A stretch of DNA of 64,000 bases from positions 1,056,001 through 1,120,000 of the forward strand of contig CAVYXA010000001.1 of the NCBI GenBank assembly GCA_963772365.1. The letters are read 5' to 3'. Below are positions 158-30,426 of the stretch, piece after piece. The translations under genes and the position numbers were made by a program. Position 1 is the first letter of the stretch. Each line of letters starts with the position of its first letter. The notes beneath the pieces are model-generated. The model was not told the origin of the DNA. It was given only the letters and a program-made list of their open reading frames with translations, and ran no database searches. The stretch comes from an uncultured Verrucomicrobiae bacterium. Lineage in GTDB: Bacteria; Verrucomicrobiota; Verrucomicrobiia; Chthoniobacterales; UBA10450.

Positions 158-2371
158 TCATTCGTGCTTCGTCACTGCTTCTGTGAGTTCCTTGCATCTT
201 TTCAGATCCAATTTTCCCGAAGCCAGAACAGGAATTGACTCCAGCTGCTGAACCTGTTTCGGGATCCACAAATTGGGAACACCGGCTTCACGCAGCTTAT
301 GGCGCAATTGGGCAAGATCGACATCTACTGCGCTTAAAAGCACCAGCGCTTCGCCCTTTTGCTCGTCTTGCACACCCATGATCGCAAACGGGCGTTCCTC
401 TCGTCCGCTGAAACCGAGAAGATCGACAATTTTCATTTCCACCGCTTCGTGTGGCACCATCTCGCCCCCGATTTTTGAAAAACGCGACAGGCGGCCTTCG
501 ATATAAAGAAACCCATCTTCGTCAAACCGACCGATGTCTCCGGACTTCAACCAGCCATGGCGCAAGACTTCGTTCGTCTGCTCGGGATCGTCCAAATAGC
601 CTTCAAAAATATTCACCCCACGCAGCCAGACCATTCCAGTTTCCTGCAACGAAAGTTTTCTGTCGGTTTCCGGGTCGCGAATCTCGGCGGCGATGCCGGG
701 CGCCATTTTTCCGACGGAACCAAGGCGGCTCGACGGCTGGATCTGCTCGGCGGGTTTAGTCGGCTCCGGCTCAGGCAGGTTCACACTCACTACCGGCGAA
801 GTCTCGGTGAGACCATATCCTTCGAACACACGCTGATCGAAGCGTTCCTCGAAATGCCTGGCCAGATCGAGCGGCAATTTTTCCGCCCCGGTAATCACGA
901 GTCGCAAACTGCGGAACTGATCTGGCTCGGCCTTCCGCAAGTAAAGTCGCAGAAACGTGGGCGTGGCGAGCAACAACGTAAGTTTGTATTTTTGAATCAA
1001 GGCCGCGTTCTTCGCCGCATCGAGCGGATTGGGGTAGGTCACAATCGGCACGCCCTCGACCAGCGGATACCAAAGTGTAACCGTCGATCCGAAACTATGG
1101 AAAAACGGGAGCGACGCGAGAATGCCATCGCTTTTTTTGAGATCGAGCAGGTCGCAGAACTGGGAGACGTTACCAGCGATGTTGCGATGACTAAGGACCA
1201 CTCCTTTTGGCTCGCCAGTGCTTCCGCTTGTAAAAAGCAATGTCGCTTCGGCATGTCCACCCATTTTTGGAATCTGCAATAGACGCAAAAGCAGCGGCGT
1301 TGGCAGCAGGGTCGACATCACCCACCACAAAATGATCGGACGCTTCAGCCGGGGCATAACTTCATCGAGTTTGAGGACATTTTTTGGCCATGGAAAATCT
1401 TTCAATCTCTCCATGAAGGGCGTAGCCGAGATCACGACCTTTAGGTTGGCTCTTCTGCAACACGATTCATTCGCTGACCGGCCCATGGTGAAATTTAGAT
1501 CGACAGGTACTTTGCCCGCCAGAGTGACGGCCAGATTCGCTACCATGGATCCTTTGCTCGCAGGCAAAACGATTGCGATGCGCTCGTCGCGAAATTCCCG
1601 CCGCAAATAACGGCTCAATGCTGCAGCCGCCCCGAGTAATTTCGAGCGACTCAAGCTGCTGTGATCAACACCATCGACAACGGCGGTTCGGAAAGGCCCG
1701 TTTTTTAGCCCACGAAGACAAGCCTCAGCAAGATGTCGATCCAACTTGGACTGTCGGCTGTAACAAAACTCCCCGAGCTTGAGCAATTCTTCTCGCAGCG
1801 TGGGAAGTTCCGCCTCATCTGGCTTCAATGGCTTACCGAAGGCCACTGTAACCGGGTAGGGAATTCGCCGCGGCCATTTGGTGAAGAATCTCCCGCCTTG
1901 GAAGGAAAAAATTGATCCCCAGAGTTGATCCAGCCAGACTGGGACTACCGGTGCATCCGCGTGGCGCGCGATGAGTTCAAAACCACGTCTTAAACGTAAA
2001 AGCGTACCCGAACGTTCGAGTTGGCCCTCGGGAAAAACACAAACGATCTCGCCTTCTCGGATCTTTTTCGCCGCCGCCCGAATGGCAGCGTGAGAACGGC
2101 GGATGTCGATAGGGATACATCCGACAAGCCGTAAGAAGGGCTTTAGCAATGGCTTGTAATAAAATTCCTGATCGACGACATAACGAATTGGTCTTTGGTA
2201 AGCAAGTTGCAGTATAATGGCATCGACCCAGGTGATGTGGTTGGGCAAGAGGAGGAATCCGCCGCCGGGAAGATTTTCCAATCCATGAGCGGCGACCCGA
2301 TACACACAGCGTGCCAGAAGCCGGCCCATACCGTAAACGAGACGCTCGGCTAACGAAACACGATTCACCAT
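158..2371 (-). CDS. aas: Bifunctional lysophospholipid acyltransferase / acyl-ACP synthetase (Aas-like)
   Basis: N-terminal PlsC motifs NHITWVD and FPEG; AMP-binding FTSGSTGEPKG, YGLTE and GDIG. Confidence 0.9.
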   Translation of the reverse strand: MVNRVSLAERLVYGMGRLLARCVYRVAAHGLENLPGGGFLLLPNHITWVDAIILQLAYQRPIRYVVDQEFYYKPLLKPFLRLVGCIPIDIRRSHAAIRAAAKKIREGEIVCVFPEGQLERSGTLLRLRRGFELIARHADAPVVPVWLDQLWGSIFSFQGGRFFTKWPRRIPYPVTVAFGKPLKPDEAELPTLREELLKLGEFCYSRQSKLDRHLAEACLRGLKNGPFRTAVVDGVDHSSLSRSKLLGAAAALSRYLRREFRDERIAIVLPASKGSMVANLAVTLAGKVPVDLNFTMGRSANESCCRRANLKVVISATPFMERLKDFPWPKNVLKLDEVMPRLKRPIILWWVMSTLLPTPLLLRLLQIPKMGGHAEATLLFTSGSTGEPKGVVLSHRNIAGNVSQFCDLLDLKKSDGILASLPFFHSFGSTVTLWYPLVEGVPIVTYPNPLDAAKNAALIQKYKLTLLLATPTFLRLYLRKAEPDQFRSLRLVITGAEKLPLDLARHFEERFDQRVFEGYGLTETSPVVSVNLPEPEPTKPAEQIQPSSRLGSVGKMAPGIAAEIRDPETDRKLSLQETGMVWLRGVNIFEGYLDDPEQTNEVLRHGWLKSGDIGRFDEDGFLYIEGRLSRFSKIGGEMVPHEAVEMKIVDLLGFSGREERPFAIMGVQDEQKGEALVLLSAVDVDLAQLRHKLREAGVPNLWIPKQVQQLESIPVLASGKLDLKRCKELTEAVTKHE

Positions 2372-2426
2372 TATTTAAGGATTTACATTTCCCGTGCGGT
2401 CATTTATCTGCAATCGGCAATTGTCC

Positions 2427-3710
2427 ATGCAACCGGCCGATAGAACAGGCAATCGGGCTGCAATCGCGCTGTGGTTGCTGCTTGCCATCAATCTCTTTAA
2501 TTACATCGACCGCTACATCCTGGCTGCGGTTTTGCCAAGGATTCGCCAAGAATTTTTGGCTGGCGATCCGAATCAGTTTGCCAAAGCTGGCTGGCTGTTT
2601 CCGGCATTCCTCCTCAGTTACCTGTGCGCGGCGCCTCTCTTCGGCTGGCTGGCAGACCGGGTGTCGCGCTGGTGGCTAATCGCTATCAGCGTTGGGATCT
2701 GGAGTCTGGCTAGCGGTTGGTCAGGCCTGGCCGTTTCGTTTGCGATATTGCTTTGCACACGCACGTTGGTGGGGATTGGTGAAGCCGGATATGGCCCAGC
2801 CGCACCGACGATTTTGTCCGATCTGTATCCACTCGAACGGCGCGGTAGGATTCTTTCATACTTCTACCTGGCGATGCCTGTAGGGGCGGCGCTTGGCTAT
2901 GCCTTTGGCGGTAAAATTTCTGACCTGCTGGGGTGGCGCTCGGCGTTTTACCTGGTCGTAGCACCCGGGTTGATCCTGGCGGGCCTTTGTTTGTTGATGC
3001 GTGATCCTCGCGCAGGATCGACATGGCCAGCTCAGAAAAATCGCCCCACCGCACGTGATTACACGGCCCTGATTCGCAACAAATCGTACGTGATCAATAC
3101 CGCCGCGATGACGGCACTCGTCTTCGCAATTGGCGGAATGTCTGCATGGGTACCGGACTACATTTTCTCGGAACGGGGACACGAATTCGCCGCCAGCCAA
3201 AACCTGCTGGGCAATATCAATCTAACCTTTGGCGCAATCACCGCCGCGGCAGGGTTTCTGGGTACATTGCTCGGTGGCTGGATAGGCGACTGCCTGCGCA
3301 AGCGATATGCCAGCGCTTACTTCTTGATCTCCGGCGTCGCCATGTTGCTGGCGTTTCCGGCCACGATCGCGATGCTGCATGTGCGTTTTCCCGGCGCCTG
3401 GATTTGCATTTTTCTGTCGGTTTTCTTCCTGTTTTTCAATACCGGTCCTGCGAACACTGCGCTTGTGAATGTTACGCTTCCAAACGTGCGCTCCGCTGCA
3501 TTCGGCCTCAACATCTTCCTGATTCACTTGTTTGGCGATGCTGCTTCACCGCCACTCATTGGTGCTATCCGCGATCGGTCGAGCATGAAGGCTGGCTTTC
3601 TGGTGGTTTCTTTCGCGATTCTCATTGCGGCGCTGCTTTGGTTTTGGGGCACAAAATATCTCGCCGCCGACACGGAGGCAGTCGAGAAGAGTACCCAGAC
3701 CTCTTCCTAG
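2427..3710 (+). CDS. MFS transporter, spinster-like
   Basis: NLFNYIDR, GWLADRVSR and GIGEAGY motifs; about 12 TM segments; ATG at 2427 chosen as start. Confidence 0.85.
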   Translation: MQPADRTGNRAAIALWLLLAINLFNYIDRYILAAVLPRIRQEFLAGDPNQFAKAGWLFPAFLLSYLCAAPLFGWLADRVSRWWLIAISVGIWSLASGWSGLAVSFAILLCTRTLVGIGEAGYGPAAPTILSDLYPLERRGRILSYFYLAMPVGAALGYAFGGKISDLLGWRSAFYLVVAPGLILAGLCLLMRDPRAGSTWPAQKNRPTARDYTALIRNKSYVINTAAMTALVFAIGGMSAWVPDYIFSERGHEFAASQNLLGNINLTFGAITAAAGFLGTLLGGWIGDCLRKRYASAYFLISGVAMLLAFPATIAMLHVRFPGAWICIFLSVFFLFFNTGPANTALVNVTLPNVRSAAFGLNIFLIHLFGDAASPPLIGAIRDRSSMKAGFLVVSFAILIAALLWFWGTKYLAADTEAVEKSTQTSS

Positions 3711-20005: not shown

Positions 20006-20081
20006 GACCCTATCGTCTAGAGGCCTAGGACATCGCCCTTTCACGGCGGTAACACGGGTTCGAATCCCGTTAGGGTCGCCA
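20006..20081 (+). tRNA. tRNA-Glu (anticodon TTC)
   Basis: GACCCTA/TAGGGTC acceptor stem, CT-TTC-AC loop, GGTTCGAATCC T-arm, encoded CCA; 76 nt. Confidence 0.96.
20054..20079 (+). repeat. attL core
   Basis: ACGGGTTCGAATCCCGTTAGGGTCGC, identical to 30401-30426. Confidence 0.92.
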
Positions 20082-20167
20082 CCTTTTTTCATAGGTAAAT
20101 CGGGCGATTCGTGTCCACTTTCAGATTTGGCGTGACAGAAACGTGACAAATCTTCAAGATCGGCCGC

Positions 20168-21412
20168 GTGAAGGCGAAACGCATCGAAGTGAAAGAGGGA
20201 AGCGTTTCTGTTCCCATTTACAGGTTTTCTGACGGCAGATTTTGCGTCGACACCCTCGTTGGAAAAAAGCGCCGGCGAATCACCCGCGCCTCACTCGACG
20301 CGGCCAAGATCGAAGCGCGGAAGCTGATCGCGCAGATTGCTTCGGGCCGCGCCCATGAGGAGCGAATGACGCTCGCAGAAGTCGAGGATTACCGCCTCGC
20401 GAAGAACAAGGTGGCTCCATTCGGAATGTCACTGCTCAGCGCTGTGGAGGAATGGATCGCGGGACGGGGCAAGACGCAGCGCATCATCTCCAAAACGGTT
20501 GCCGAAGTTGTCGAGGAGTTCCTTACCTCGAAGCGGGTGGAGGGCGTGAGTTTTTTCCATTTGGAAGATCGGAAATATCGGATGAACAAATTCGCCGCTG
20601 CATTTCCCGGCCGTATCGATCAAATCAGCACGCACGAAATCGAGGTTTGGCTGAATGGCCTCGGAATCAGCGGGCGCACACGCAACAACTACCGCAACGC
20701 AGTCCTTCAGCTTTTCCGCCACGCGCGGGGCAAGCGCTACCTGCCGCGGAACGAGCCCACCGCTGTCGAAGACGTGGCATCAGCAAATACGGGCGAGGGC
20801 GCGATTGAAATCTATACGTCGCAAGAGCTGCGGTTGCTCCTCTCAAATGCTCCGGCGAAACTACTGCCGTTTTTTGCGATCGGCGCGTTCGCCGGTCTGC
20901 GGAGTCAGGAAATCATGCGGCTCGATTGGAGTGAAATTCGTTTTGAGCAACACTTCATCGAGGTTGCTGCGGCCAAGGCGAAGACAGCCTCACGCCGTCT
21001 TGCGCCGCTGCTGCCCGCCCTCGCGGCTTGGCTGTTGCCGCTGCGCCAGAAGACAGGTCACGTGGTCGGCTACACGCGCAACGACATGCTGTGCGAAGCT
21101 CGGCAGCGGTATTGCAAGAGCGGTATCAAAGTGGAGGACGAGGTTTTTGAATTTAGGTGGAAACCGAACGCGCTTCGGCACAGTTACGCAAGCTATCGAT
21201 TGGCCGACATCAAGGATGCGGCGCGGGTTGCGCTGGAGATGGGTAACTCGCCGGCAATGCTCTTCCGCAATTATCGCGAGCTTGTGACCGAGAAACAAGC
21301 AACAGAGTGGTTTGCTGTCCTCCCCGAAACCAAAGATCGGCAAAACCAACTCCGAAAGAAATCGCGCGACAAGCCGCTTAACTGCGCGATTGGATCAAGA
21401 ACTCCTCCATAA
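20168..21412 (+). CDS. Tyrosine recombinase / integrase
   Basis: AGLRSQEI (catalytic R), KAK, NALRHSYASY, MGNS...RNY (catalytic Y); next to tRNA. Confidence 0.93.
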   Translation: MKAKRIEVKEGSVSVPIYRFSDGRFCVDTLVGKKRRRITRASLDAAKIEARKLIAQIASGRAHEERMTLAEVEDYRLAKNKVAPFGMSLLSAVEEWIAGRGKTQRIISKTVAEVVEEFLTSKRVEGVSFFHLEDRKYRMNKFAAAFPGRIDQISTHEIEVWLNGLGISGRTRNNYRNAVLQLFRHARGKRYLPRNEPTAVEDVASANTGEGAIEIYTSQELRLLLSNAPAKLLPFFAIGAFAGLRSQEIMRLDWSEIRFEQHFIEVAAAKAKTASRRLAPLLPALAAWLLPLRQKTGHVVGYTRNDMLCEARQRYCKSGIKVEDEVFEFRWKPNALRHSYASYRLADIKDAARVALEMGNSPAMLFRNYRELVTEKQATEWFAVLPETKDRQNQLRKKSRDKPLNCAIGSRTPP

Positions 21413-21644
21413 ATACGACGAGTTCTTGAAGGCGGTAGCGCACTAAATGTGAACTGACCTTGCGCGGATGAATATAGCCAAGGCGTACCCACTCCTTGAA
21501 CTGTGATTCGCCGACGGAAAGAAATTTGCACGCGCCTTTCCGATCGACATAGCCACTGAAATCATTGATACGCGAAAGCTGTTTTCCGACAGCTTCGCTG
21601 ACGGCGCGGATCAGCAACTCGTCTTGGATTTCAACGCGCAACAT
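21378..21644 (-). CDS. Excisionase-like helix-turn-helix protein
   Basis: YVDRKGACKFLSVGESQFKEWVRLGYI...VRY, HTH_17-like pattern; convergent with the integrase. Confidence 0.7.
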   Translation of the reverse strand: MLRVEIQDELLIRAVSEAVGKQLSRINDFSGYVDRKGACKFLSVGESQFKEWVRLGYIHPRKVSSHLVRYRLQELVVFMEEFLIQSRS

Positions 21645-21912
21645 GTGCTATCTGTTCGACGCGATTTCCATTTTTCAAACGCGGACAGAAACAACAGAGC
21701 TCAAGCCGCAACCGAGTAATCCTCGAGCGATTTCGATCAGTGAAGATTCCCATGTTTGAGGTTTAACCCAGTGATACTGTCTGCGTGCTCTCATTCTGGC
21801 GCAGCTTTGCTTTCGCTTGGAGCGGTAAACTGCGATATGCCGCCGGAAGGGCAACTTTTGCTGCTGACGAAAATCCTCTGCCCGACTAACGGCTCGCAAT
21901 CGGCGGTCTGTT

Positions 21913-22248
21913 TTGCTAGATTACCTTGGATTGAAAGTGGATTCCAAGAGTTTGGAAGCTGAAGAAACAGGGTCCGGGCATTTGGCCGCTATAGCCCGTC
22001 GCGTTTGCTGGTGGGAACCGGTTGCCTCCACCTTTGAAAATACGCCGCTGTTTCTCTGCCGAATTATGGTGCTGGGAACATGGGAGGACATCTGCATCGC
22101 TCTAGACCATTACGGCAGGGATGCTTTCCGCCAGGCATTACTAAATGCGCCTCCTGGCTTGTTCGATGCCCGTTCCTGGCATTACTGGCACCATCGCTTG
22201 CAGCTTCTGCCTGTTCCATCGTTGCCGCAGCGCGTCATCCCGGCATGA
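21913..22248 (+). CDS. Putative antitoxin partner of the AbiEii-type toxin
   Basis: Small ORF (RIMVLGTWED...RSWHYW) coupled by ATGA overlap to the nucleotidyltransferase; start uncertain. Confidence 0.65.
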   Translation: MLDYLGLKVDSKSLEAEETGSGHLAAIARRVCWWEPVASTFENTPLFLCRIMVLGTWEDICIALDHYGRDAFRQALLNAPPGLFDARSWHYWHHRLQLLPVPSLPQRVIPA

Positions 22249-22940
22249 AGCCACGGCTGGATGTTTTGCCTCCGCAGCAGCGGCGCTTTTGGTCTGAGCT
22301 TTCCCAATTGCCCGAGCATTTCGTTTTATACGGAGGAACAGCGATTGGCTTGCGCCTTGGTGGAAGACAATCCGTTGATTTCGATTTTTTCACGAACCAG
22401 CCCATTTCGGCAGACGCTCTAAGCCGGAGCCTTCCATTTCTTCGCGGAGCGGAACTGATTCAATCCGAGCCGAACACTTCCACTTTTACCGTGCATCATG
22501 AGGGAGAAATCAAAGTCTCATTTTTCGGTGGACTCACCATCGGACGTGTTGCCGATCCCGACCGTTGCGAAGATAATGGAGTTTCCATCGCTTCGCTCCT
22601 CGATCTCGCAGCGCAAAAGGTAAAAGTGATTCTGGCACGCGCGGAGGCAAAGGATTACCTCGACATTTATACGTTGTTAAAAGCCGGCATCACCTTGCCC
22701 AGTGCTCTTGGAGCGGCGAAAGCGCTGTATCCCGAATTCAACCCGGTGCTGTCCCTGAAGGCCCTCGCATACTATGGCGAGCCCGGCCTTGGCGCCATAT
22801 CAGCGGAGATTCGTGAGTTTCTCACGGCGGCAAGCGCAAGAGTGGAATCGGTTGAGACGATTTCTAAAATCGCACCCGGCATCACTCCGTCGAACCGCAA
22901 CACGCGTGTTCAGACGCGAAACAAAAGTATCCAAATTTAA
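22245..22940 (+). CDS. AbiEii/AbiGii-family nucleotidyltransferase toxin
   Basis: LYGGTAIGLRLGGRQSVDFDFF, AAQK...R...KDYLD motifs. Confidence 0.88.
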   Translation: MKPRLDVLPPQQRRFWSELSQLPEHFVLYGGTAIGLRLGGRQSVDFDFFTNQPISADALSRSLPFLRGAELIQSEPNTSTFTVHHEGEIKVSFFGGLTIGRVADPDRCEDNGVSIASLLDLAAQKVKVILARAEAKDYLDIYTLLKAGITLPSALGAAKALYPEFNPVLSLKALAYYGEPGLGAISAEIREFLTAASARVESVETISKIAPGITPSNRNTRVQTRNKSIQI

Positions 22941-23511
22941 TCGCCTTTTTACCCACCATCAAGAATGACGGTTTGCTTATCGGCGAGGCATGACGAAGGA
23001 TCTTCAACCAGTCTTGCCCACGGAAGGAACCGTGGGCTGGGTTAGGAGGGACGCCCTACCCCTTAGCACCGCTAAGGAATTTTTGATTTGCCGCTAACCC
23101 GCTCCCGATCTGAGGAGCAACGCGCCAGACATCGTAGCGCCCACGCAGCGTTCGCCGGACGTTTGTTCGCGCATTCACGCTGCCGGCACCAAGCCATCAC
23201 GCCAAGTTGATGTCGCCGACGGATGGATCTCGAACTGCGGCAAGAAGGGCGCATCGGACCACCTCAGCTGCGCGTTGTTTGCTAGCGTTAACGTGGCGGT
23301 TAAAACCGATATGATCGCGCGTTCCCTCCCGAGGTCGCTGATAAGCCGCAGCAGCGACGAACACCGAACCGACCCGGCTAACGTTCGCACCACGCTGCAG
23401 CGAAATCGCCAGCGGCAGAATCCCGATTGACCTATCCGCAAACTAGCGTTGAAAATCAACCACTCGCTGGTGAATATTCACTATGAAACGGCGGGAATGT
23501 CACACCTCAAA

Positions 23512-23868
23512 TCAATTCTTTGGTGTCGCTGGTTCTGCGGTTTCGGGGATCGCGTCCGGCGGCAAGAACTTTCGCATCTCGTTCAAATCGGATTCAGCTC
23601 CCGGATCCCCAAACTGCTTCGCGCGGAGCATCCAAGTATATGCAAGCTTGTATTGTTTTTTAATGAGAAAATGCCTGCTAAGCCTGGCTGCTGCTGCTGC
23701 ATCGCCATTGTTAGCCGCTGCCGTCGCAGCAGCGAGATCATCTTGCGCTAGCTCGATTGACGATCTGGGACCTAAACGCTCGTGGCTTTTGTAAATGTAA
23801 ACAGCGCCAACGATTAGTGCGACCAGACAAAGGGCCATCGCGCCAGCTTTCGGAATTGAGTTCGTCAC
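23512..23868 (-). CDS. Hypothetical membrane-anchored protein with Sel1-like repeat (immunity-like)
   Basis: N-terminal TM; AANNGDAAAAARL...AYTWMLRAKQFGD. Confidence 0.55.
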   Translation of the reverse strand: MTNSIPKAGAMALCLVALIVGAVYIYKSHERLGPRSSIELAQDDLAAATAAANNGDAAAAARLSRHFLIKKQYKLAYTWMLRAKQFGDPGAESDLNEMRKFLPPDAIPETAEPATPKN

Positions 23869-23922
23869 ATCAGCGCGAACGGTAAACGGGAATGTATGAA
23901 GCGCATGTCGCCGCTTTAATGT

Positions 23923-24285
23923 CTATGGGGTGGAAGCGGGAGACGGTGTCGCCGTCGAAGTCGGTTGTTTGCCGTTGGACTTGCCGAGTTCTTTTAATTT
24001 CTCTACATCAAGACCCAAAGCGTCGAGATATGCTCGACCGCGCTCCGACTCGATTTGATACCACGCAAAGAAAAGAATCAGAATGAAGGACAGCACAAAT
24101 GAGATGAGGTCTTTCCTTCGAGAGCGGTTAGTATTCAAAAGGTAAACGATCGCCCAGACAATTTGGAGGCCGAGAAGGAAGTAGTAGAGTTCTAACGAGA
24201 CACCCGGCCGCAGGTCCGAAATCACTAACCAGTTTGCGCTTAGCAGCAAAGCGCAAGTTACGAGCGGCAGAATTCGCGCCCTCAT
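23923..24285 (-). CDS. Hypothetical 3-TM membrane protein, putative immunity protein
   Basis: Starts 10 nt after the mini-Rhs 3 stop; three hydrophobic segments. Confidence 0.6.
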   Translation of the reverse strand: MRARILPLVTCALLLSANWLVISDLRPGVSLELYYFLLGLQIVWAIVYLLNTNRSRRKDLISFVLSFILILFFAWYQIESERGRAYLDALGLDVEKLKELGKSNGKQPTSTATPSPASTP

Positions 24286-24294
24286 CGGCTTGTA

Positions 24295-25017
24295 TCAATG
24301 CCCAAGGTTTATCCGCCCAAGATACAAACCGCTTCCCGCTAGTTGACCATTAAGAAATGTTTGCATCAGGCCGAGATGAAACCCGTTGTCATAGGCAGCG
24401 ACGCTCCGGTCAGAACCAAGGATCGGCACAGCAGGCAGGTTCAGCGACAAAGTTGTCAATAAATTCCCAGGATTTCGAGAATCTCCTGTGCCACATCCAA
24501 AAAGATCAATTGATGCTCCAGGCGCGAGTTTAGGTCCGATCAAGTCTGGGAAGTTCCCATAATTAACGAGACCATTTGGACCTTCTTCAACAAGCAAAAC
24601 GCTTCCGTTTGATACGACGATTGCACTTGCTGGGTTCGCCGCGTTGTCTATCCCTTGCCCATAACCGCCGATGCCGGTTCCAGCAGGGTCATATAAGCCG
24701 TGTCCACCGTAGAATAAGACGTTTCCAATCGACCCCGGTGCCGCTGCTATAATCGCCTGGTTCAGTCCGGCACCCGTGCTAACGCGAGTGACTCGGCCGT
24801 TTACGTCCCGCAGATAAACGTCCAATCCCAGCGGATCAACTCTGTTGATCGGGTCGTTGAAGCCGTAATGATATAAATTTGTTCCGCCGTCTTCTCCGAT
24901 TGGATCGCGGCTCAACCAGCGTCCGATTGTTGGATCATAACCAGCTTTTGCTTGGATCGACAGCAACATACCGGCGATCAGGGCGATCAATAAAACGGAC
25001 GTAATTTTGGAATTCAT
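24295..25017 (-). CDS. Mini-Rhs 3: signal peptide + Rhs core motif + variable tip
   Basis: MNSK...QAKA|GYDPTIGRWLSRDPIGEDGGTNLYHYGFNDPINRVDPLG; tip has GGHG and LFGCGTG. Confidence 0.85.
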   Translation of the reverse strand: MNSKITSVLLIALIAGMLLSIQAKAGYDPTIGRWLSRDPIGEDGGTNLYHYGFNDPINRVDPLGLDVYLRDVNGRVTRVSTGAGLNQAIIAAAPGSIGNVLFYGGHGLYDPAGTGIGGYGQGIDNAANPASAIVVSNGSVLLVEEGPNGLVNYGNFPDLIGPKLAPGASIDLFGCGTGDSRNPGNLLTTLSLNLPAVPILGSDRSVAAYDNGFHLGLMQTFLNGQLAGSGLYLGRINLGH

Positions 25018-25209
25018 GGTTTCTTGGGGGCGTTGTGATTCTTTTGTTCGACGATATCCCAGTCTACTCCGGGATGCTCCTTAATGGCTCAAATCAGCGC
25101 CAAAACCAATGAAAAATCAACATTCCCACCACGACGGCTACTAGTAATGGCACGATTACGAGCGCGAACAGAGAGAGCAAATCTTTCGGAAAATTCACGA
25201 ACTCGGCGG
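25015..25209. repeat. Cassette leader repeat, copy A
   Basis: About 130 bp near-identical to 26501-26629; 25015-25080 also matches 28789-28855. Confidence 0.9.
25094..25198 (-). CDS. 34-aa hydrophobic peptide (Fst/Ldr-like), copy A
   Basis: GTG...TGA, MNFPKDLLSLFALVIVPLLVAVVVGMLIFHWFWR; frame conserved in the second copy. Confidence 0.55.
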   Translation of the reverse strand: MNFPKDLLSLFALVIVPLLVAVVVGMLIFHWFWR

Positions 25210-25234
25210 TGCCGACGGTCGGCGAGCAAAAACT

Positions 25235-25633
25235 CTACCGAACATGTTTCTCCAACAATCGAACGACCGGTTCGCTGATGCTGCATTGTTGCTTGAGCCA
25301 ACTCAATTGATCACGCGAAATTCGATAATCTTCGTTGCCAGGCATTTCTTTTTCGAAAGACTTATACTTTGGATTTAGGAGAACCCACACCCAACGCTTT
25401 CCATCAGCCGCGGGGATTCCCACGGCACAATACTCATCGCGCCGTTTGATAATCAGATGATCATCAACAGGCGTCGCTCGGCCCTGGACTGACAATGCTT
25501 GGAGGAACGATGCCTCCGGCTTGGAGCCGAGCTCGTCGCTCTGTCTCAACAAGAAAAACAATATCGGAAAGGCCGAAATGGTTACAATTAGTACCACCCA
25601 GAACAGAACACGCTGCCATATCATTAATGGCAC
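25235..25633 (-). CDS. Hypothetical membrane-anchored protein (immunity-like)
   Basis: N-terminal TM, 132 aa, abuts the preceding small ORF. Confidence 0.6.
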   Translation of the reverse strand: MPLMIWQRVLFWVVLIVTISAFPILFFLLRQSDELGSKPEASFLQALSVQGRATPVDDHLIIKRRDEYCAVGIPAADGKRWVWVLLNPKYKSFEKEMPGNEDYRISRDQLSWLKQQCSISEPVVRLLEKHVR

Positions 25634-25771
25634 CTACTCGCTATCCTTTTGCGATTTGCCTTTGTCCCCACCAGTGCCGCTTTCATAACGGGATGACGAA
25701 CTAGGCCAAAAAATGATTGCGACAATCACTCCTGCCGCAATGAGGCCGAATATTATTCCAAGCAAAGTCAT
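25634..25771 (-). CDS. 45-aa single-TM protein, putative immunity for mini-Rhs 2
   Basis: ATG directly after the mini-Rhs 2 TAG: MTLLGIIFGLIAAGVIVAIIFWPSSSSRYESGTGGDKGKSQKDSE; not in the ORF track. Confidence 0.6.
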   Translation of the reverse strand: MTLLGIIFGLIAAGVIVAIIFWPSSSSRYESGTGGDKGKSQKDSE

Positions 25772-26446
25772 CTAAGGCCCAAGAATCAATTGTCCGTCTC
25801 TAATAACGCTTCCGACTTTGCGATACAGCAGATAGCCACCAGTTCCGGTAAGCGTTAAGGCAACTCCTTGGCCACCGATGCCGCTGTTCCAGAAAAAGGC
25901 AGGGATTGTTCCGCGCGAGATTGCAAGGCGCTCCGCAAAGTTCAGACTGGACCACGTGATTCCGTTCTCCACCGCCACGTATTCTCCAAATGCGTTAAAC
26001 GCCCCACGTAACAGCAAAGCTTCGTCAATCTGTAACGCCAAATGACCAATAGCCCTGCTGCGCTGCAAAGTTCGGTCACACGGATCATAGAAACCATGAC
26101 TCGCGAACGGGTCACCGAACGGGTTCAATCCATCCAAACCGGCATATGCACCTTGATCGAAGTCCGCGCCCCGAAAAAATTCCGCGCCTGTTCCTTCGTA
26201 ACCGCGCCCATCAAACCAAGTGCCGGGAATCAGCAGATAATACAGTCCGAGTGGATCAATCCGGTTGACCGGATCATTTTGAACATACGAATAAAGATTC
26301 GTCCCTTGCCGCAGTTCGGCGTTGTTCAGTGGATCGCGACTCAACCAGCGACCGATAGTCGGATCGTATCCGCTGCGAGCAGAATTCGAAATCAGTAAGC
26401 TGGTCAGCAGACCAACGAGAAGGAAACGGGCGTTTTTATGATTCAT
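25772..26446 (-). CDS. Mini-Rhs 2: signal peptide + Rhs core motif + variable tip
   Basis: MNHK...SARS|GYDPTIGRWLSRDPLNNAELRQGTNLYSYVQNDPVNRIDPLG; Gly-rich hydrophobic tip. Confidence 0.85.
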   Translation of the reverse strand: MNHKNARFLLVGLLTSLLISNSARSGYDPTIGRWLSRDPLNNAELRQGTNLYSYVQNDPVNRIDPLGLYYLLIPGTWFDGRGYEGTGAEFFRGADFDQGAYAGLDGLNPFGDPFASHGFYDPCDRTLQRSRAIGHLALQIDEALLLRGAFNAFGEYVAVENGITWSSLNFAERLAISRGTIPAFFWNSGIGGQGVALTLTGTGGYLLYRKVGSVIRDGQLILGP

Positions 26447-26629
26447 GGTCTCTTGGGGGATTTTGTTCACGTGAATCCCAGTTTGTTTCCGGTTTGCTCG
26501 TTAATGTCTCAAATCAGCGCCAAAAACAATGAAAAATCAACATTCCCACCACGGCGGCTACTAGTAATGGCACGATTACCAGCGCGAACAGAGAGAGCAA
26601 ATCTTTCGGAAAATTCACGAACTCGGCGG
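26444..26629. repeat. Cassette leader repeat, copy B
   Basis: Near-identical to copy A over 26501-26629; proximal part degenerate with a deletion. Confidence 0.9.
26514..26618 (-). CDS. 34-aa hydrophobic peptide (Fst/Ldr-like), copy B
   Basis: MNFPKDLLSLFALVIVPLLVAAVVGMLIFHCFWR; 3 nt differences from copy A. Confidence 0.55.
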   Translation of the reverse strand: MNFPKDLLSLFALVIVPLLVAAVVGMLIFHCFWR

Positions 26630-26724
26630 GTACATTGGACGGACGTTTAGCTCCTGCTCTTTCAGCAAGCAGCCTCCCTAATTACCGGATGGATGCTTTC
26701 CAGAGAGAAGCAGCGAACCACATA

Positions 26725-27006
26725 TCATGGCTTCGGACTGCGACCGCTATCAAGCCGCCGCAATTCCATAGAAATCTCATTCAATGCTCCCAAATCTTGG
26801 AATCCCGTATTGACCTCATGGTCAAGCCTCTGTTCGAGATCGCCGGGTAAACGACAACCCTGCGCCTGGTACGTTTTTCGAATGGCTACAATCAGAGCAT
26901 GGTCAGCCTTTGCAATATAATATCAGCTCACAAATAGCCAGACATTTGCGAGCACGGAAGCGGCGACGCATGCGCACAAGACGATGATCAAGATAATTCG
27001 TTTCAT
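26725..27006 (-). pseudogene. Interrupted immunity-like membrane protein
   Basis: MKRIILIIVLCACVAASVLANVWLFVS*YYIAKADH...RSPKP*, with one in-frame TGA at 26923-26925. Confidence 0.5.
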
Positions 27007-27227
27007 TAAGAATGACTAGACTTGAACAAGAAGCCTTCCCTTCGCAAACGGCTTCTCAGTTTACGGAGTCGGAACGCTTCCGGCACCTGTAAATACAGGG
27101 CTAGCGCCGTCTCTCCGATATCCATCAATATAAGGCACAAAGGGATATCCAGTGAGAGCCATCAAACGAAGCATTTCATCTTCGATATCATTTGCCATAA
27201 TGGCGAAGAATCGTCGCCTCAATCGAA

Positions 27228-27806
27228 CTAATCGGAGAAATGATACCACCGTCCCACAATATGCTTGAGCTGATAATGTCGCTCCGGCCGATTCGACGCA
27301 TCGTCACACCCTTTGAACAAGTAGCCCTTGTGGATACGTCCTCCAGCTGAAACAAGAAATTCCACGACGACAGCGCCGTCCGTGCAACGTGTGGCTTCAA
27401 CAGCAAGCACGTTGCGGGGACACTTGATCTTGCTGAGATCAATTTCGACGAACTCCGTGCTTCTCGGAATATCTTGGCTCTTTATGTCCTCCACGGCTCG
27501 CTCGAAATCAGCCAAGTGAGAATTAAACTGGCTGTCACTAAATGATGCTCCAAGGGAGCGAGCAATCCATGGGCTGAACGCAAACACAACGCAAATAACT
27601 GATGGCAATATCCAAAGCGGCGAAGATTTCCTCCAAACGAAGAAACCCAAGACCAGAGTGATCGGCACGGCAAGAATGAGAGAGAAAAATGTCAGGGCGG
27701 CTAACGTTACAAATAAGAAGTTCTGCGTGAGCGTCGCCAGGACGTTGAACGCAAGGCAAGCAGTTCCGATTAGCAAGACCGTTATGTTGCCGATTCGAAT
27801 CGACAT
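27228..27806 (-). CDS. Hypothetical membrane protein (immunity-like)
   Basis: MSIRIGNIT start; 3 TM segments followed by a soluble domain ending GRWYHFSD. Confidence 0.6.
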   Translation of the reverse strand: MSIRIGNITVLLIGTACLAFNVLATLTQNFLFVTLAALTFFSLILAVPITLVLGFFVWRKSSPLWILPSVICVVFAFSPWIARSLGASFSDSQFNSHLADFERAVEDIKSQDIPRSTEFVEIDLSKIKCPRNVLAVEATRCTDGAVVVEFLVSAGGRIHKGYLFKGCDDASNRPERHYQLKHIVGRWYHFSD

Positions 27807-27956
27807 GGATGTGCACGCAGCGAAAGGCGGAATCTTATTTCCCGAAAAACAGCAGGTTGAACCAACGCACGAGGCTAGACTGAGGTGCACCACGAAAGGT
27901 TCGCGAGTCCTTTGAACGCCATTTTGCAGCTATGCGTCGCCTCGTTGATCGCGGAG

Positions 27957-28208
27957 TTACCTCAGTGCGCCAGCTATTTCCACAAGAGTTCGCGCGGAAA
28001 CAAGACCAGCACTGCCAAATAATGCAACCTCCGCCCACGTGAGCATGCGGGGGTTCGACCGCCGGGTTCGAATCACCGCGACTATTGCGACAACTGATGC
28101 TGCCACAACTACACCTGCGATAGCGAGGCATGCCCAAATCTGAACAAAATCAATCACTGAAAGAGCAAGAAGAAGAAGCGCAGCAGAGATACGTATCAAC
28201 TGCTTCAT
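27957..28208 (-). CDS. 83-aa 3-TM protein, putative immunity for mini-Rhs 1
   Basis: Starts 14 nt after the mini-Rhs 1 stop; highly hydrophobic. Confidence 0.6.
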   Translation of the reverse strand: MKQLIRISAALLLLALSVIDFVQIWACLAIAGVVVAASVVAIVAVIRTRRSNPRMLTWAEVALFGSAGLVSARTLVEIAGALR

Positions 28209-28221
28209 GCAGAAGTCGCTT

Positions 28222-28791
28222 TTATCGCAGTGGCCCTGGCAGTGAGCTTGGGATTGCGTCAGGCGGGCCGAAAAGGTCTCTGAAAAAATAGAACATCTCG
28301 CTCGAAAAAGATCGACAGCTAGAATTTGTAAGACGATAAGGACCCTGCTGTCCGACCAAGGCGTTCAATATCGCTAATGCACGTAGGTCCTCCTCTGGGG
28401 AGGTCAATAAGTATGATGAAAAGGACTTAGGCGTAGTGCTTCTAAAGTCATCATAAATTGTGCCGGTTAGGCCATAGCGCCAAGTAAAGCCGCTCGTTAT
28501 GTCCACGCCGAAAGTATACGAACCGAGAACAGCGTTCGGTTTGCCGACGTTGATATTCTCATGGGGACTCCAAGGCGGGCCACCAATCCAGATATCTGTT
28601 CCTTTTGGATCTATCAAATTGACGGGGTCATTTCGCACATATGAATAGAGGTTTGGACCCTGACGAAGTTCGGCATTGTCGATCGGATCGCGACTTAACC
28701 AACGTCCGATAGTCGGATCATAGCCGGCTTGAACTGAATTCACGATCAGAACAGCCGCAGCTAGAGCGAGGAATGACTTTCCAACGTTCAT
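28222..28791 (-). CDS. Mini-Rhs 1: signal peptide + Rhs core motif + variable tip
   Basis: MNVGK...SVQA|GYDPTIGRWLSRDPIDNAELRQGPNLYSYVRNDPVNLIDPKG; tip with PH...YRLTNSSCRSFS; ATGA overlap with the upstream gene. Confidence 0.85.
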   Translation of the reverse strand: MNVGKSFLALAAAVLIVNSVQAGYDPTIGRWLSRDPIDNAELRQGPNLYSYVRNDPVNLIDPKGTDIWIGGPPWSPHENINVGKPNAVLGSYTFGVDITSGFTWRYGLTGTIYDDFRSTTPKSFSSYLLTSPEEDLRALAILNALVGQQGPYRLTNSSCRSFSSEMFYFFRDLFGPPDAIPSSLPGPLR

Positions 28792-30023
28792 GGTTTCTTG
28801 GGGGCAGTGTGATTCTTTTGTTCGACGAGATCCCAATTGACTTCGGGATGCTGCTCTTTTAACAGCCGATGATTTTCCTGGTCAATCATTTCTTTTGCTG
28901 AAAGCGATTTCACTGGACCGCCTACGGGGACGAACTCCCAGGGCGCAAGCTCAACGATCGTGTCCGCCAAATACGTTTTGTAAATGCGGTTCTGCGGCCA
29001 CAGGCGTGCGGCTTCGGCGTAAGCAACGATTGCCTCCGGCAAACGCTTGTGGAATCTGAGCGCGCCTGCCCGCGTTTCCATAAAGATTGCGAGTGCCTGC
29101 TCCGGCCTAAGCGTGCGCAGAGAAATGCCGGATTTAATTTCTTCCCCGGGGATCTTGCGCCAGGCTTTGTACTCTTCATCCGTCTTGAAAACGACACCTT
29201 GGCTCGTTGCTTCCAGATCCCGGAACACGTCCTCGCCTGGCCGTTGCCAGCGAACGAAAAGATGATCATGGGCGCTGACGAGGCCGACTGGATAGCCGAG
29301 CCGTCGGCCGATGGCGACATACAGCACCGGCATCGAAGCGCACGTTCCCACGCGTTTGTCGCTCAACAAACCCGTGAGAAACACATTTGATGGATCGGAA
29401 AGAAATGCCGAGTCAGGTAAGTTCTCGGAATCAGTCAAAGCGGGATTGTACTGAACGCCCAAATCTTGTTCGAGAACAGTCACAATCATTCCCATGGAGT
29501 AGTAGATCTCCGAGTTCTCGTACTGCTCGGGATGTTCTTTGAAACGATGTCGATTCCGTCTCGTTTCCAAATCAACCCGATTGGTCCAGTAATCGATAAT
29601 CTTCAGCGACTTTTGGACATCGACGTTTTCTGAGCCAGGCAGACCTTTCGCGCACAACAGATTCATCTCGGCGATGTCGATGTCTTCGAGTTCGGCCGGA
29701 CTCATTTCGAGAAGGCGACCCAACGTTAGACCGGTGTGCACTGGCGAGATTTGCTGACTGGAAGCTTGTGATCTCCCGCTCGTTTGATAGCGCGCGATCG
29801 GATAGGCCACGGCGCCTCCGATTATGAATGCCATCGCCAAGCCGAGGAAGTAGCGAGTCATCGACGACTTTCTTGAGGGTGCCGACTGTTCCCTGCGCGC
29901 TGCACGACGGACGATTTGCTCTTCCCTTCTTCGCTGATGGCGTGCACGACTCACAAGGATTTGATACTTCGAGGTGGCGGTTGAAACAAGCGGGATTGCT
30001 CGCATCGCCTTTGTCGCCGCCAC
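28788..30023 (-). CDS. Membrane-anchored transglutaminase-like (SirB1/Transglut_core2-like) protein with TPR
   Basis: GTCASMPVLYVAIGRRLGYPV...DHLFVRW...DLEAT; N-terminal TM; TPR-like EAIVAYAEAARLWP; start uncertain. Confidence 0.75.
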   Translation of the reverse strand: MAATKAMRAIPLVSTATSKYQILVSRARHQRRREEQIVRRAARREQSAPSRKSSMTRYFLGLAMAFIIGGAVAYPIARYQTSGRSQASSQQISPVHTGLTLGRLLEMSPAELEDIDIAEMNLLCAKGLPGSENVDVQKSLKIIDYWTNRVDLETRRNRHRFKEHPEQYENSEIYYSMGMIVTVLEQDLGVQYNPALTDSENLPDSAFLSDPSNVFLTGLLSDKRVGTCASMPVLYVAIGRRLGYPVGLVSAHDHLFVRWQRPGEDVFRDLEATSQGVVFKTDEEYKAWRKIPGEEIKSGISLRTLRPEQALAIFMETRAGALRFHKRLPEAIVAYAEAARLWPQNRIYKTYLADTIVELAPWEFVPVGGPVKSLSAKEMIDQENHRLLKEQHPEVNWDLVEQKNHTAPKKP

Positions 30024-30400
30024 TCATGACGGCTGGTTGCGAGCCGATTGTCGTCAGTCCTCAAGTACGAGGAGTCGCACGCTCGCCCGTGCGTGAATCG
30101 CTCCACTATTTTATGGCTCGGTGCGCGCCGTAAAGGTATTGCTCGCTCCGCTGCGCTCCACCTTGACTGTGCTCCCTCCGCCGGGAAGAAGTCGCGTATG
30201 GATTCACGCAGAGAATTTGTCGTCGCCAGTTACTTCAAACAATTCGCCATGCAGTTCGTGACAAGACGTGACAAATTTTGCCGAAATTCGTGCCTATTAG
30301 TGACCGAATGGATTTTGCAGCTGCGGGAGGAGATTTTATATAAGTTAATAATAATCAGTGATATGGGTAACAATGATCGGTCACAAAAATTTGTCACTCG

Positions 30401-30426
30401 ACGGGTTCGAATCCCGTTAGGGTCGC
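30401..30426 (+). repeat. attR core (duplicated tRNA-Glu 3' end)
   Basis: Exact 26-bp match to 20054-20079. Confidence 0.92.

Follow-up and report, generated by a model that had tools for sequence, protein, structure and literature searches.

A transglutaminase-like protein genetically paired with signal-peptide-bearing mini-Rhs genes: a putative shell-less polymorphic toxin system on an integrative island of a Verrucomicrobiae bacterium

The window analyzed here, a stretch of 64,000 nucleotides from an uncultured, probably soil-dwelling Verrucomicrobiae bacterium (GenBank assembly GCA_963772365.1, contig CAVYXA010000001.1, positions 1,056,001 to 1,120,000), contains an array of three short Rhs-related genes headed by the gene of a transglutaminase-like protein; positions given below for the window are counted from its first nucleotide. 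As the original prediction for this DNA had it, the three genes are co-oriented and each begins with its own ATG, all of them being located on the minus strand. The first of these mini-Rhs genes, g1 (28222-28791), encodes 189 amino acids, comprising a signal peptide of 22, a partial Rhs core (hereafter half-core) of 43 and a variable tip of 124 residues, whereas g2 (25772-26446) encodes 224 amino acids (25, 43 and 156 residues, respectively) and g3 (24295-25017) 240 amino acids (25, 40 and 175 residues, respectively). On the same strand and ahead of g1 lies the gene of a transmembrane (TM)-anchored protein of 357 amino acids that combines a transglutaminase fold with tetratricopeptide repeat (TPR)-like helices and matches the Pfam family PF13369 (Transglut_core2) (28788..29861), and its stop codon is overlapped by the ATG of g1 as ATGA.

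The claim that about 40 residues of Rhs core ending in DPxG are present in each gene was borne out by the NCBIfam profile of the Rhs-associated core, TIGR03696, which matches g1, g2 and g3 with 48.4, 50.9 and 51.6 bits, respectively, all above the cutoff of 32.5. These matches begin at profile position 30/38 and run to position 76 of 76 (38-76 in g3), such that none of the three genes holds the complete core (positions 1-76), the part preceding the YDP motif being signal peptide throughout. The half-core corresponds to residues 23-65 of g1, where it ends in DPKGT, residues 26-68 of g2 and residues 26-65 of g3, where it ends in DPLGL. Searching g1-g3 against Pfam gave nothing even at an E-value of 0.1, RHS_repeat included, and in public databases members of the family are labelled 'RHS repeat-associated protein' or 'hypothetical protein'.

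Residues 26-65 of g3 align with the C-terminal end of solved Rhs/TcC shells (PDB 7q97, 4o9x, 4igl and 8qjb), namely with residues 1252-1290 of 7q97, and the column of g3 L65 is the one at which the 4o9x chain stops and at which several PDB constructs terminate. According to part of the published work on RhsA, C-terminal autocleavage of this protein needs D1324 and D1346 and cuts after W1350, inside the motif PxxxxDPxGL (PMC8765631). All of g1-g3 carry this motif with both aspartates, followed by the variable tip, and with residue roles borrowed from RhsA the motif alignment suggests that D35 and D61 of g1 are the counterparts of D1324 and D1346. In an alignment of 55 members, Y24, G29, R34, D35, P36, G45, D61 and G64 (g1 numbering) are invariant, while signal peptides and tips vary. 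We also considered the half-core as a decaying recombination scar and rejected this idea, since key residues that are invariant across phyla are not what such a scar would look like.

Each N-terminus of g1-g3 starts with the ATG and runs through an n-region with K/R and a hydrophobic h-region to a pair of small residues at positions -3/-1 directly before GYDPTIGRWLSRDP, the end triplets being VQA, ARS and AKA. The homology that g1-g3 share with long Rhs proteins sets in at the YDP motif and not before. Comparison of residues 1-66 of g3 with proteins of 132-420 amino acids returned 117 matches, of which 52 are short proteins with an M start and the motif at residue ~20-37 (among them P0093, a misclassified ordinary orphan) and 33 are fragments of long Rhs proteins; the rest lack the motif as a regular expression (22 matches) or are unclassifiable (10 matches). 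All 52 short homologues have K/R within the first 10 residues and 51 have a small residue at -1, and their median 10-residue hydropathy is 2.81 versus 0.78 in the 33 long-Rhs fragments, evaluated over the 30 residues before the motif. The single long-Rhs fragment of high hydropathy, P0030, is a gene call reading through a transglutaminase-like gene into a mini-Rhs gene. Moreover, the N-terminal sequences of the short homologues diverge widely yet end at the same junction. By this heuristic, the N-termini are signal-peptide-like and, in line with what had been proposed, do not represent internal parts of a long Rhs protein.

The transglutaminase-like protein matches PF13369 with 26.1 bits (cutoff 23.5). 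Its start is more likely to be the ATG at 29861 (357 amino acids) than the GTG at 30023 (411 amino acids), because P0118, a 72%-identical relative, has a like length. An AlphaFold2 model computed with 45 sequences (mean predicted local distance difference test score 89, predicted template modelling score 0.79) begins at the N-terminus with a TM helix, continues with a transglutaminase-type alpha/beta core and ends in C-terminal helical hairpins; within it, C174 immediately precedes a helix and H200 opens a strand, as is usual in papain-like enzymes. Across the 45 aligned sequences C174 and H200 are invariant, and conservation reaches at least 90% at N215, E217 and D228. The Cys-His transglutaminase-like assignment made earlier thus holds at the level of profile, residues and modelled fold, and the protein appears from these residues to keep a Cys-His(-Asp/Asn/Glu) catalytic set, its enzymatic activity being a prediction.

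A wide VIA structure search with this model returned menin first (Z 14.7, root-mean-square deviation 4.7, 245 residues), ahead of TPR-only matches (Z 10.4 or less), TglA (Z 8.9) and the transglutaminase 4xz7 (Z 8.2). Menin binds peptides in a cavity between its transglutaminase-like and TPR-like parts. Foldseek against the PDB gave nothing at an E-value of 1e-3 or below, and a sequence search of the PDB nothing meaningful (best E-value 0.68). The neighbours of the protein in the Atlas are Transglut_core2/TPR clusters of Verrucomicrobiota and Planctomycetota, among which one bears the name SirB1 N-terminal domain-containing. Since homologues have a TM anchor or what looks like a cleavable signal peptide, the transglutaminase-like domain should face the periplasm. 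The family is large, with 2,556 representative clusters at an E-value of 1e-3 or below and 659 at 1e-30 or below, most members having 300-450 amino acids, and 460 relatives were found in species-representative genomes. Among longer family members, P0124 carries the whole transglutaminase-like domain duplicated in tandem, P0143 and P0268 are of matching length (734-735 amino acids), and P0149, P0169, P0176 and P0222 (592-681 amino acids) lack a half-core and instead end in a long C-terminal extension rich in Pro/Gln/Glu.

We determined the genetic linkage between this protein and the half-core genes in two genome samples and a reverse control. Within a phylum sample of 401 genomes, the transglutaminase-like protein is present in nine, comprising the window's own genome, five with strong matches (36-42% identity) and three with weak ones. 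A gene of the signal peptide-half-core-tip type lies directly next to it in all four strong loci with downstream sequence, the fifth strong contig ending 105 nucleotides past the transglutaminase-like gene, and no mini-Rhs gene follows at the three weak loci. TIGR03696 itself is present in 259 of the 401 genomes and is therefore too common to pick out the mini type.

A scan of species-representative genomes (one genome per species) was based on the best 80 of the 460 relatives, which yielded 77 loci, 72 of them testable and five with too little downstream sequence. The closest of these loci are 78-81% identical, and the set is drawn from Verrucomicrobiota (including Akkermansia, Prosthecobacter, Limisphaerales and Opitutaceae), Planctomycetota, Lentisphaeria, Chloroflexota, Hydrogenedentes, Sumerlaeota and a few others. 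A half-core gene is found directly downstream of the transglutaminase-like gene, on the same strand, in 68 of the 72 testable loci, and the remaining four have one to four signal-peptide minis upstream instead. The signal-peptide heuristic is passed by 55 of the 68 adjacent genes; the start codon lies -62 to +30 nucleotides from the transglutaminase stop in 41 of these 55 pairs, with an ATGA overlap in 15. Arrays of two to four signal-peptide minis occur in 23 of the 72 loci, and a long Rhs frame is present within 7 kb in eight. Clustering of the open reading frames (ORFs) of all 77 loci revealed only two conserved families, the transglutaminase-like one in 77 loci and that of the core-bearing genes in 66, and the clusters ranking next consist of antisense shadows of the transglutaminase-like gene.

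For the reverse control, metagenome contigs were searched from the motif GRWLSRDP and the mini-Rhs alignment, which gave 79 loci, 65 of them with conventional Rhs only. The transglutaminase-like gene is present at none of these 65 (25 of which are at least 8 kb long) and at seven of the 14 loci flagged as signal-peptide mini-Rhs. One of the 14 flagged loci (L129) is a false positive of the heuristic, and among those without the gene three have less than 700 nucleotides of upstream sequence. In addition, six of the best 150 transglutaminase-like representatives are fusions in which the transglutaminase-like domain is followed by a linker, a half-core and a tip, devoid of YD repeats and of an N-terminal TM helix, and such fusions point, as classical gene-fusion evidence, to a functional link between the two parts. 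No fusion to RHS repeats was seen among 18 longer homologues of 632-738 amino acids, which is weak evidence. Overall, the linkage to the transglutaminase-like gene in other genomes that had been predicted was recovered in the phylum sample, in the species representatives and in the fusions, and is absent from the conventional Rhs controls.

The tips of g1, g2 and g3, which span 124-175 amino acids, are mutually unrelated, as had been suggested (best blastp E-values 0.05-3.3). Over 143 amino acids, the core and tip of g2 show 47% identity (E 7e-31) with the C-terminal end of a full-length Rhs protein encoded on contig C4 of the same genome; the g2 tip therefore belongs to a family used by a classical Rhs protein. 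To place the tips in context we surveyed those of 92 signal-peptide mini-Rhs proteins from the genome loci with Pfam. No match at an E-value of 1e-3 or below was found in 84, three have matches under the cutoff, and five have tips above Pfam cutoffs, namely TNT (89.7 bits), AMOP (47.7), SLT (36.3), DUF6765 (26.7) and Ntox44 (25.5). By analogy, the tips fit a largely unannotated pool of polymorphic toxins, and those of the window itself are putative toxins. Several tips located beside transglutaminase-like genes of other genomes (L018, 9555-10466; L020, 7153-7950; L021, 7118-7978 and 9496-10353) share a motif of the H..QD..AH type, and both L021 tips give weak matches to Zn-dependent phospholipase C under the cutoff (E 0.02-0.03). 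These may represent a lipase-type tip family.

Each mini-Rhs gene is followed by small membrane ORFs, as the original prediction had noted, and the six ORFs, all on the minus strand, contain one to four TM-like segments each. Behind g1 lie an ORF of 83 amino acids with two TM-like segments (27957..28208), which is an immunity candidate, and a multi-TM ORF of about 191-221 amino acids with a C-terminal soluble part (27228..27893). Directly after g2 follow a single-TM ORF of 45 amino acids (25634..25771) and then a membrane-anchored ORF of 132 amino acids with one TM-like segment (25235..25633). Behind g3 are two further immunity candidates, of 120 amino acids with three TM-like segments (23923..24285) and of 118 amino acids with one (23512..23868), neither of which has a match in Pfam or NCBIfam, the latter having a homologue in the related locus L031 (E 1.6e-50). 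Some of the small membrane ORFs co-occur with tips in relatives. A homologue of the 25634..25771 ORF is encoded directly 3' of a tip-2-like gene in locus L028 (E 2e-11), and this ORF is the best candidate for tip 2 immunity. Comparison of L028 (8725-11188) with positions 25235-27893 of the window shows homologues of the small membrane ORFs in a different order and next to different tips. Owing to this reordering, a one-to-one pairing of tip and immunity gene is not obvious. The small membrane proteins probably provide immunity.

The array retains traces of how it may have been assembled. Directly upstream of the g3 ATG is a remnant of the 3' end of the transglutaminase-like gene (25018..25081, minus strand), which forms part of a 69-nucleotide repeat (25013-25081 and 28787-28855, 88% identical), and about 60 nucleotides of the same 3' end, with a deletion of 10 nucleotides, are kept upstream of g2. 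These remnants before g2 and g3 thus define an exchange unit made up of the transglutaminase 3' end, the signal peptide and the half-core. New tips would enter by recombination through this conserved unit, and we propose that incoming tips push older cassettes downstream, which would account for the three-cassette array. The array mirrors a pattern reported, in part of the source, for orphan modules, in which new Rhs tips displace old ones (PMC3150448). An element of 142 nucleotides is repeated upstream of g3 (25068..25209) and g2 (26488-26629) with 95% identity; it is not present before g1, and the plus-strand ORFs over it look spurious. Consensus scans for promoters and terminators performed no better than on shuffled sequence (6 versus 5.6 and 6 versus 8.6).

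With regard to Rhs genes elsewhere in the genome, the earlier statement that no full-length rhs gene occurs applies to the island and to the whole window, and it overlooked the full-length Rhs protein on contig C4 that shares the g2 tip. This protein (105326-110551; locus L025, 6327-11552, minus strand) has 1,742 amino acids, nine RHS_repeat stretches and a Glucodextran_B-like insert. By eye, its N-terminal region after a signal-like start has a papain/C39-type peptidase look (Cys and His motifs), with no Pfam match. The cores of g1 and g3 are 57-58% identical to its core. At the DNA level, the longest exact matches between g1-g3 and the C4 rhs gene are 10-17 nucleotides, with 70% identity over 179 nucleotides, and exact matches this short make exchange with the genome's own rhs gene unlikely at present. 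The predicted absence of a YD-repeat shell from the island was confirmed, all 15 PF05593 matches falling in two long genes outside the window. PAAR and TssC gave no match in the window's own genome (90% complete), the one carrier covered by this survey. A second type of Rhs core with a full first half is found on contig C3 (399-406 kb; L002-L004 and L026) and on contig C1 (1730026-1730244; L008), comprising three open frames of 120-342 amino acids and a fragment of 73 amino acids which look like classical orphan modules. Finally, a long RHS-repeat frame (1,860 amino acids) at C1:777769-780426 has no TIGR03696 match in the own-genome search and may encode an Rhs-like protein without the canonical core.

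The original prediction had described the shell-less array correctly and had overlooked its setting. A tRNA-Glu (TTC) gene, which is the only tRNA gene in the window (ARAGORN; 20006..20081, plus strand), is adjoined by a tyrosine integrase gene (20168..21412, plus strand; PF00589, 30.9 bits, cutoff 27.1), and the 3' end of the tRNA gene (attL, 20054-20079) is repeated directly and perfectly over 26 nucleotides at 30401..30426 (attR, plus strand), where the island ends, the two copies being 10,347 nucleotides apart. The tRNA gene, the adjoining integrase and the perfect repeat therefore identify the array as cargo of an integrative island of 10,373 bp (20054-30426). The G+C content of the array is 49-51%, that of the flanks 53-57%. 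Related modules adjoin tRNA genes in L027, L028, L031 and L032, this being tRNA-Glu in L031, and tRNA-Val or tRNA-Phe in others. In L031 an integrase homologue (E 4e-95) adjoins the tRNA-Glu gene and the transglutaminase/mini-Rhs module; it matches in three overlapping frames (2270-3506, minus strand), which suggests frameshifts, so the island there may be decaying. With the window integrase as query, homologues were found within 7 kb in four of the 77 related loci.

Besides the putative toxin array, the island carries a small helix-turn-helix protein that is a possible excisionase or regulator (21378..21644, minus strand; HTH_17, 20.6 bits, under the cutoff of 27) and has a homologue in L031 (E 1e-49). 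Its further cargo outside the array is an AbiEii region (21913..22940), comprising an AbiEii-type nucleotidyltransferase toxin gene (22080-22940, plus strand; PF08843, 59.3 bits, cutoff 22.5) and an upstream ORF overlapping it (21913-22248, plus strand), which could be an AbiEi-like partner.

How does this arrangement compare with known systems? The mini-Rhs proteins resemble Rhs/YD-repeat toxins (type VI secretion system (T6SS) effectors of the RhsA type, and TcC) in the homologous last ~40 residues of the core, the aspartate positions, DPxG(L) and the variable tip. They differ from them in having no YD shell, PAAR, VgrG, TcB partner or first half of the core, in the signal peptide fused directly to the YDP motif, and in their size of 190-240 amino acids versus 1,400 or more; in addition, mini-Rhs genes are linked to the transglutaminase-like gene, whereas the conventional Rhs loci of the control are not (0 of 65). 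With orphan rhs-CT/rhsI and cdiA-CT/cdiI modules the cassettes share a short core piece, DPxGL, a tip, a small downstream ORF, the occurrence in arrays and remnants of the upstream gene. They depart from orphan rhs-CT/rhsI modules in their own ATG, their conserved signal peptide and the absence of an upstream full-length rhs gene, in a recombination handle that takes in the 3' end of another gene, the transglutaminase-like one, and in a DNA sequence that has diverged too far from the rhs genes of the genome for recombination with them.

The closest known proteins are the toxins described by Zhang, de Souza, Anantharaman, Iyer and Aravind (2012), in which, according to part of that work, a signal peptide or TM segment and an inactive transglutaminase domain precede RHS repeats, with Verrucomicrobia among the carriers (PMC3482391). 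The likeness consists of a Sec-dependent Rhs-type toxin headed by a transglutaminase fold that lies behind a signal peptide or TM segment. As far as described in that part of the source, however, those toxins are single polypeptides with RHS repeats and a lost Cys/His/Asp triad, whereas the present module consists of two genes or a repeat-less fusion, has no repeats and keeps Cys-His. The transglutaminase-like protein also has the same combination of folds as the menin/SirB1-type Transglut_core2 plus TPR scaffolds, together with PF13369 and the Atlas neighbours, but differs from these in its predicted extracytoplasmic, membrane-anchored setting, in its genetic tie to a putative toxin gene and in having kept Cys-His. 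The paired architecture was not found described in the literature searched, which covered listings and abstracts, with subscription journals and supplements outside its scope. As far as we found, the pair of transglutaminase-like and mini-Rhs genes recurs in many bacterial phyla and is apparently undescribed.

Viewed together with the observed architecture, residue conservation, gene linkage, fusions, island borders and cassette remnants, the locus is in our view probably a polymorphic toxin-immunity system that is Sec-dependent, has no shell and includes the transglutaminase/TPR protein as its conserved partner, a system derived from Rhs toxins by loss of the YD-repeat shell and carried as a cargo operon of the island. 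The signal-peptide and linkage analyses support the original prediction of an exported, shell-less polymorphic toxin architecture, with toxicity, immunity, cleavage and export as its predicted properties. As is typical of polymorphic toxins, a constant signal peptide and half-core are joined to unrelated tips in cassette arrays. The constant part of the system would comprise a membrane-anchored protein, with an extracytoplasmic transglutaminase/papain fold packed on TPR-like helices as a menin-like scaffold with Cys-His, and a cleavable signal peptide joined to the final ~40 Rhs core residues with both autoprotease aspartates and DPxG, whereas the variable part would comprise the toxin tip and, as probable immunity factors, one or two small membrane proteins.

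A possible course of events can be outlined as follows. Both proteins would reach the periplasmic face of the inner membrane, where the transglutaminase/TPR protein would replace the missing shell as docking or maturation partner of the half-core. The tip would then be freed at DPxG, either by the aspartates of the half-core or by the Cys-His of the partner, and could act on the envelope, or in neighbouring cells after uptake. The partner might accordingly serve as a docking surface and shell surrogate, as a protease in trans or as an anchor. A more specific version, which we put forward tentatively and regard as doubtful, is that the transglutaminase/TPR protein substitutes in minimal form for the Rhs cocoon, with a menin-like pocket that would dock the half-core in the periplasm, complete or replace the aspartyl autoprotease and pass on the freed tip for release.

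A number of points weigh against the proposed toxin-immunity system. The signal-peptide calls come from our own heuristic, not from SignalP, and 13 of the 68 adjacent genes fail it owing to non-ATG starts or diverged cores. The linkage figure covers the 72 testable loci, which are the most similar part of the family, and the transglutaminase-like gene is missing from three flagged metagenome loci (L128, L143 and L154) whose upstream sequence extends for 1 kb or more. ORF clustering of the 77 loci showed no outer-membrane export component or other exporter recurring around the pair. Self-cleavage by 40 residues without a shell is putative, being taken over from RhsA. The three tips of the window have no family match even at an E-value of 0.1, and with only five of the 92 surveyed tips above a Pfam cutoff, toxicity is attributed largely by analogy. 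As to immunity, the L028 homologue of the 27228 ORF (E 4e-106) trails a mini-Rhs gene whose tip does not match tip 1, and that of the 25235 ORF (E 2.4e-61) sits upstream of the tip-2-like gene. Lastly, no RNA run was found for the locus, and five soil-metagenome DNA runs have small word shares.

Alternatively, the cassettes could be silent orphan rhs-CT/immunity modules serving as a reservoir for the rhs gene of contig C4, the signal peptides and the neighbouring gene having no role. This would agree with the 47% identity of the g2 core and tip to the C-terminus of the C4 protein and the 57-58% identity of the g1 and g3 cores, with the long Rhs frame present within 7 kb in eight of the 72 related loci, and with the fact that core-bearing orphan modules are well known (PMC3150448). 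According to part of the same source, however, classical orphans of contact-dependent inhibition systems generally lack initiation signals and signal sequences (PMC3150448), whereas ATG and signal peptide are kept here in over 50 homologues of diverged sequence. Among the orphan frames listed for the phylum, the typical ones keep the whole core (1-76), g1-g3 beginning at 30-38. Neither the island nor the window contains an rhs gene, and the DNA identity to the C4 gene is too low for homologous exchange. Given also that the transglutaminase-like gene is tied to signal-peptide minis and absent from all 65 conventional Rhs loci, we regard a silent reservoir as improbable.

The proteins might instead be secreted enzymes that act on the cell's own envelope or degrade substrates, in which case the half-core would be a pro-peptide or sorting tag and the small ORFs would not encode immunity. 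The absence of a Pfam match at an E-value of 1e-3 or below in 84 of 92 tips, the tips of the SLT lytic transglycosylase, AMOP and DUF6765 type, which are not classical toxins, the lack of a linked exporter or delivery device in the 77-locus ORF clustering and the loose immunity pairing are all compatible with such a role. In contrast, hypervariable tips on a constant N-terminus, cassette arrays, small ORFs and a mobile island constitute a polymorphic toxin signature as described in part of the comparative survey (PMC3482391), some tips are genuine toxin domains (TNT, 89.7 bits; Ntox44, 25.5 bits), and the g2 tip is shared with a full-length Rhs protein, which makes secreted enzymes an unlikely explanation. 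We give very little credence to the view that the cassettes, in concert with AbiEii, mainly stabilize the island through addiction or exclusion and do not serve competition between cells. While the array does lie in an integrase island that also holds the AbiEii toxin gene, and modules stand beside tRNA genes in L027, L028, L031 and L032, Sec export would part the toxin from a cytoplasmic addiction logic, integrase homologues occur in only four of the 77 loci (within 7 kb, with the window query), and some modules are embedded in chromosomal Rhs loci.

Rhs toxins are understood as toxin-encapsulating cocoons delivered by the T6SS, Tc or similar machines. The locus described here shows a widespread lineage in which the cocoon was dropped, the 40 self-cleaving residues (putatively so in this case) were kept, a Sec signal was added and a transglutaminase-fold partner was gained, raising the question of what the minimal unit of Rhs autoproteolysis is and whether another protein can supply the context of the shell. 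In addition, the conserved handle flags several hundred putative toxin tips, mostly unnamed by family libraries, and thereby offers a route to new toxin and immunity families. These findings bear on interbacterial antagonism in the understudied bacteria of the Planctomycetes-Verrucomicrobia-Chlamydiae group, some Akkermansia bins being among the carriers of the module. If the transglutaminase/TPR protein does act as a stand-in for the cocoon, this would constitute a previously unrecognised route of maturation and delivery for Sec-exported toxins, independent of the T6SS, Tc and type V secretion systems, and one that would be frequent among Verrucomicrobiota, Planctomycetota and neighbouring groups, with a large pool of unannotated toxin domains.

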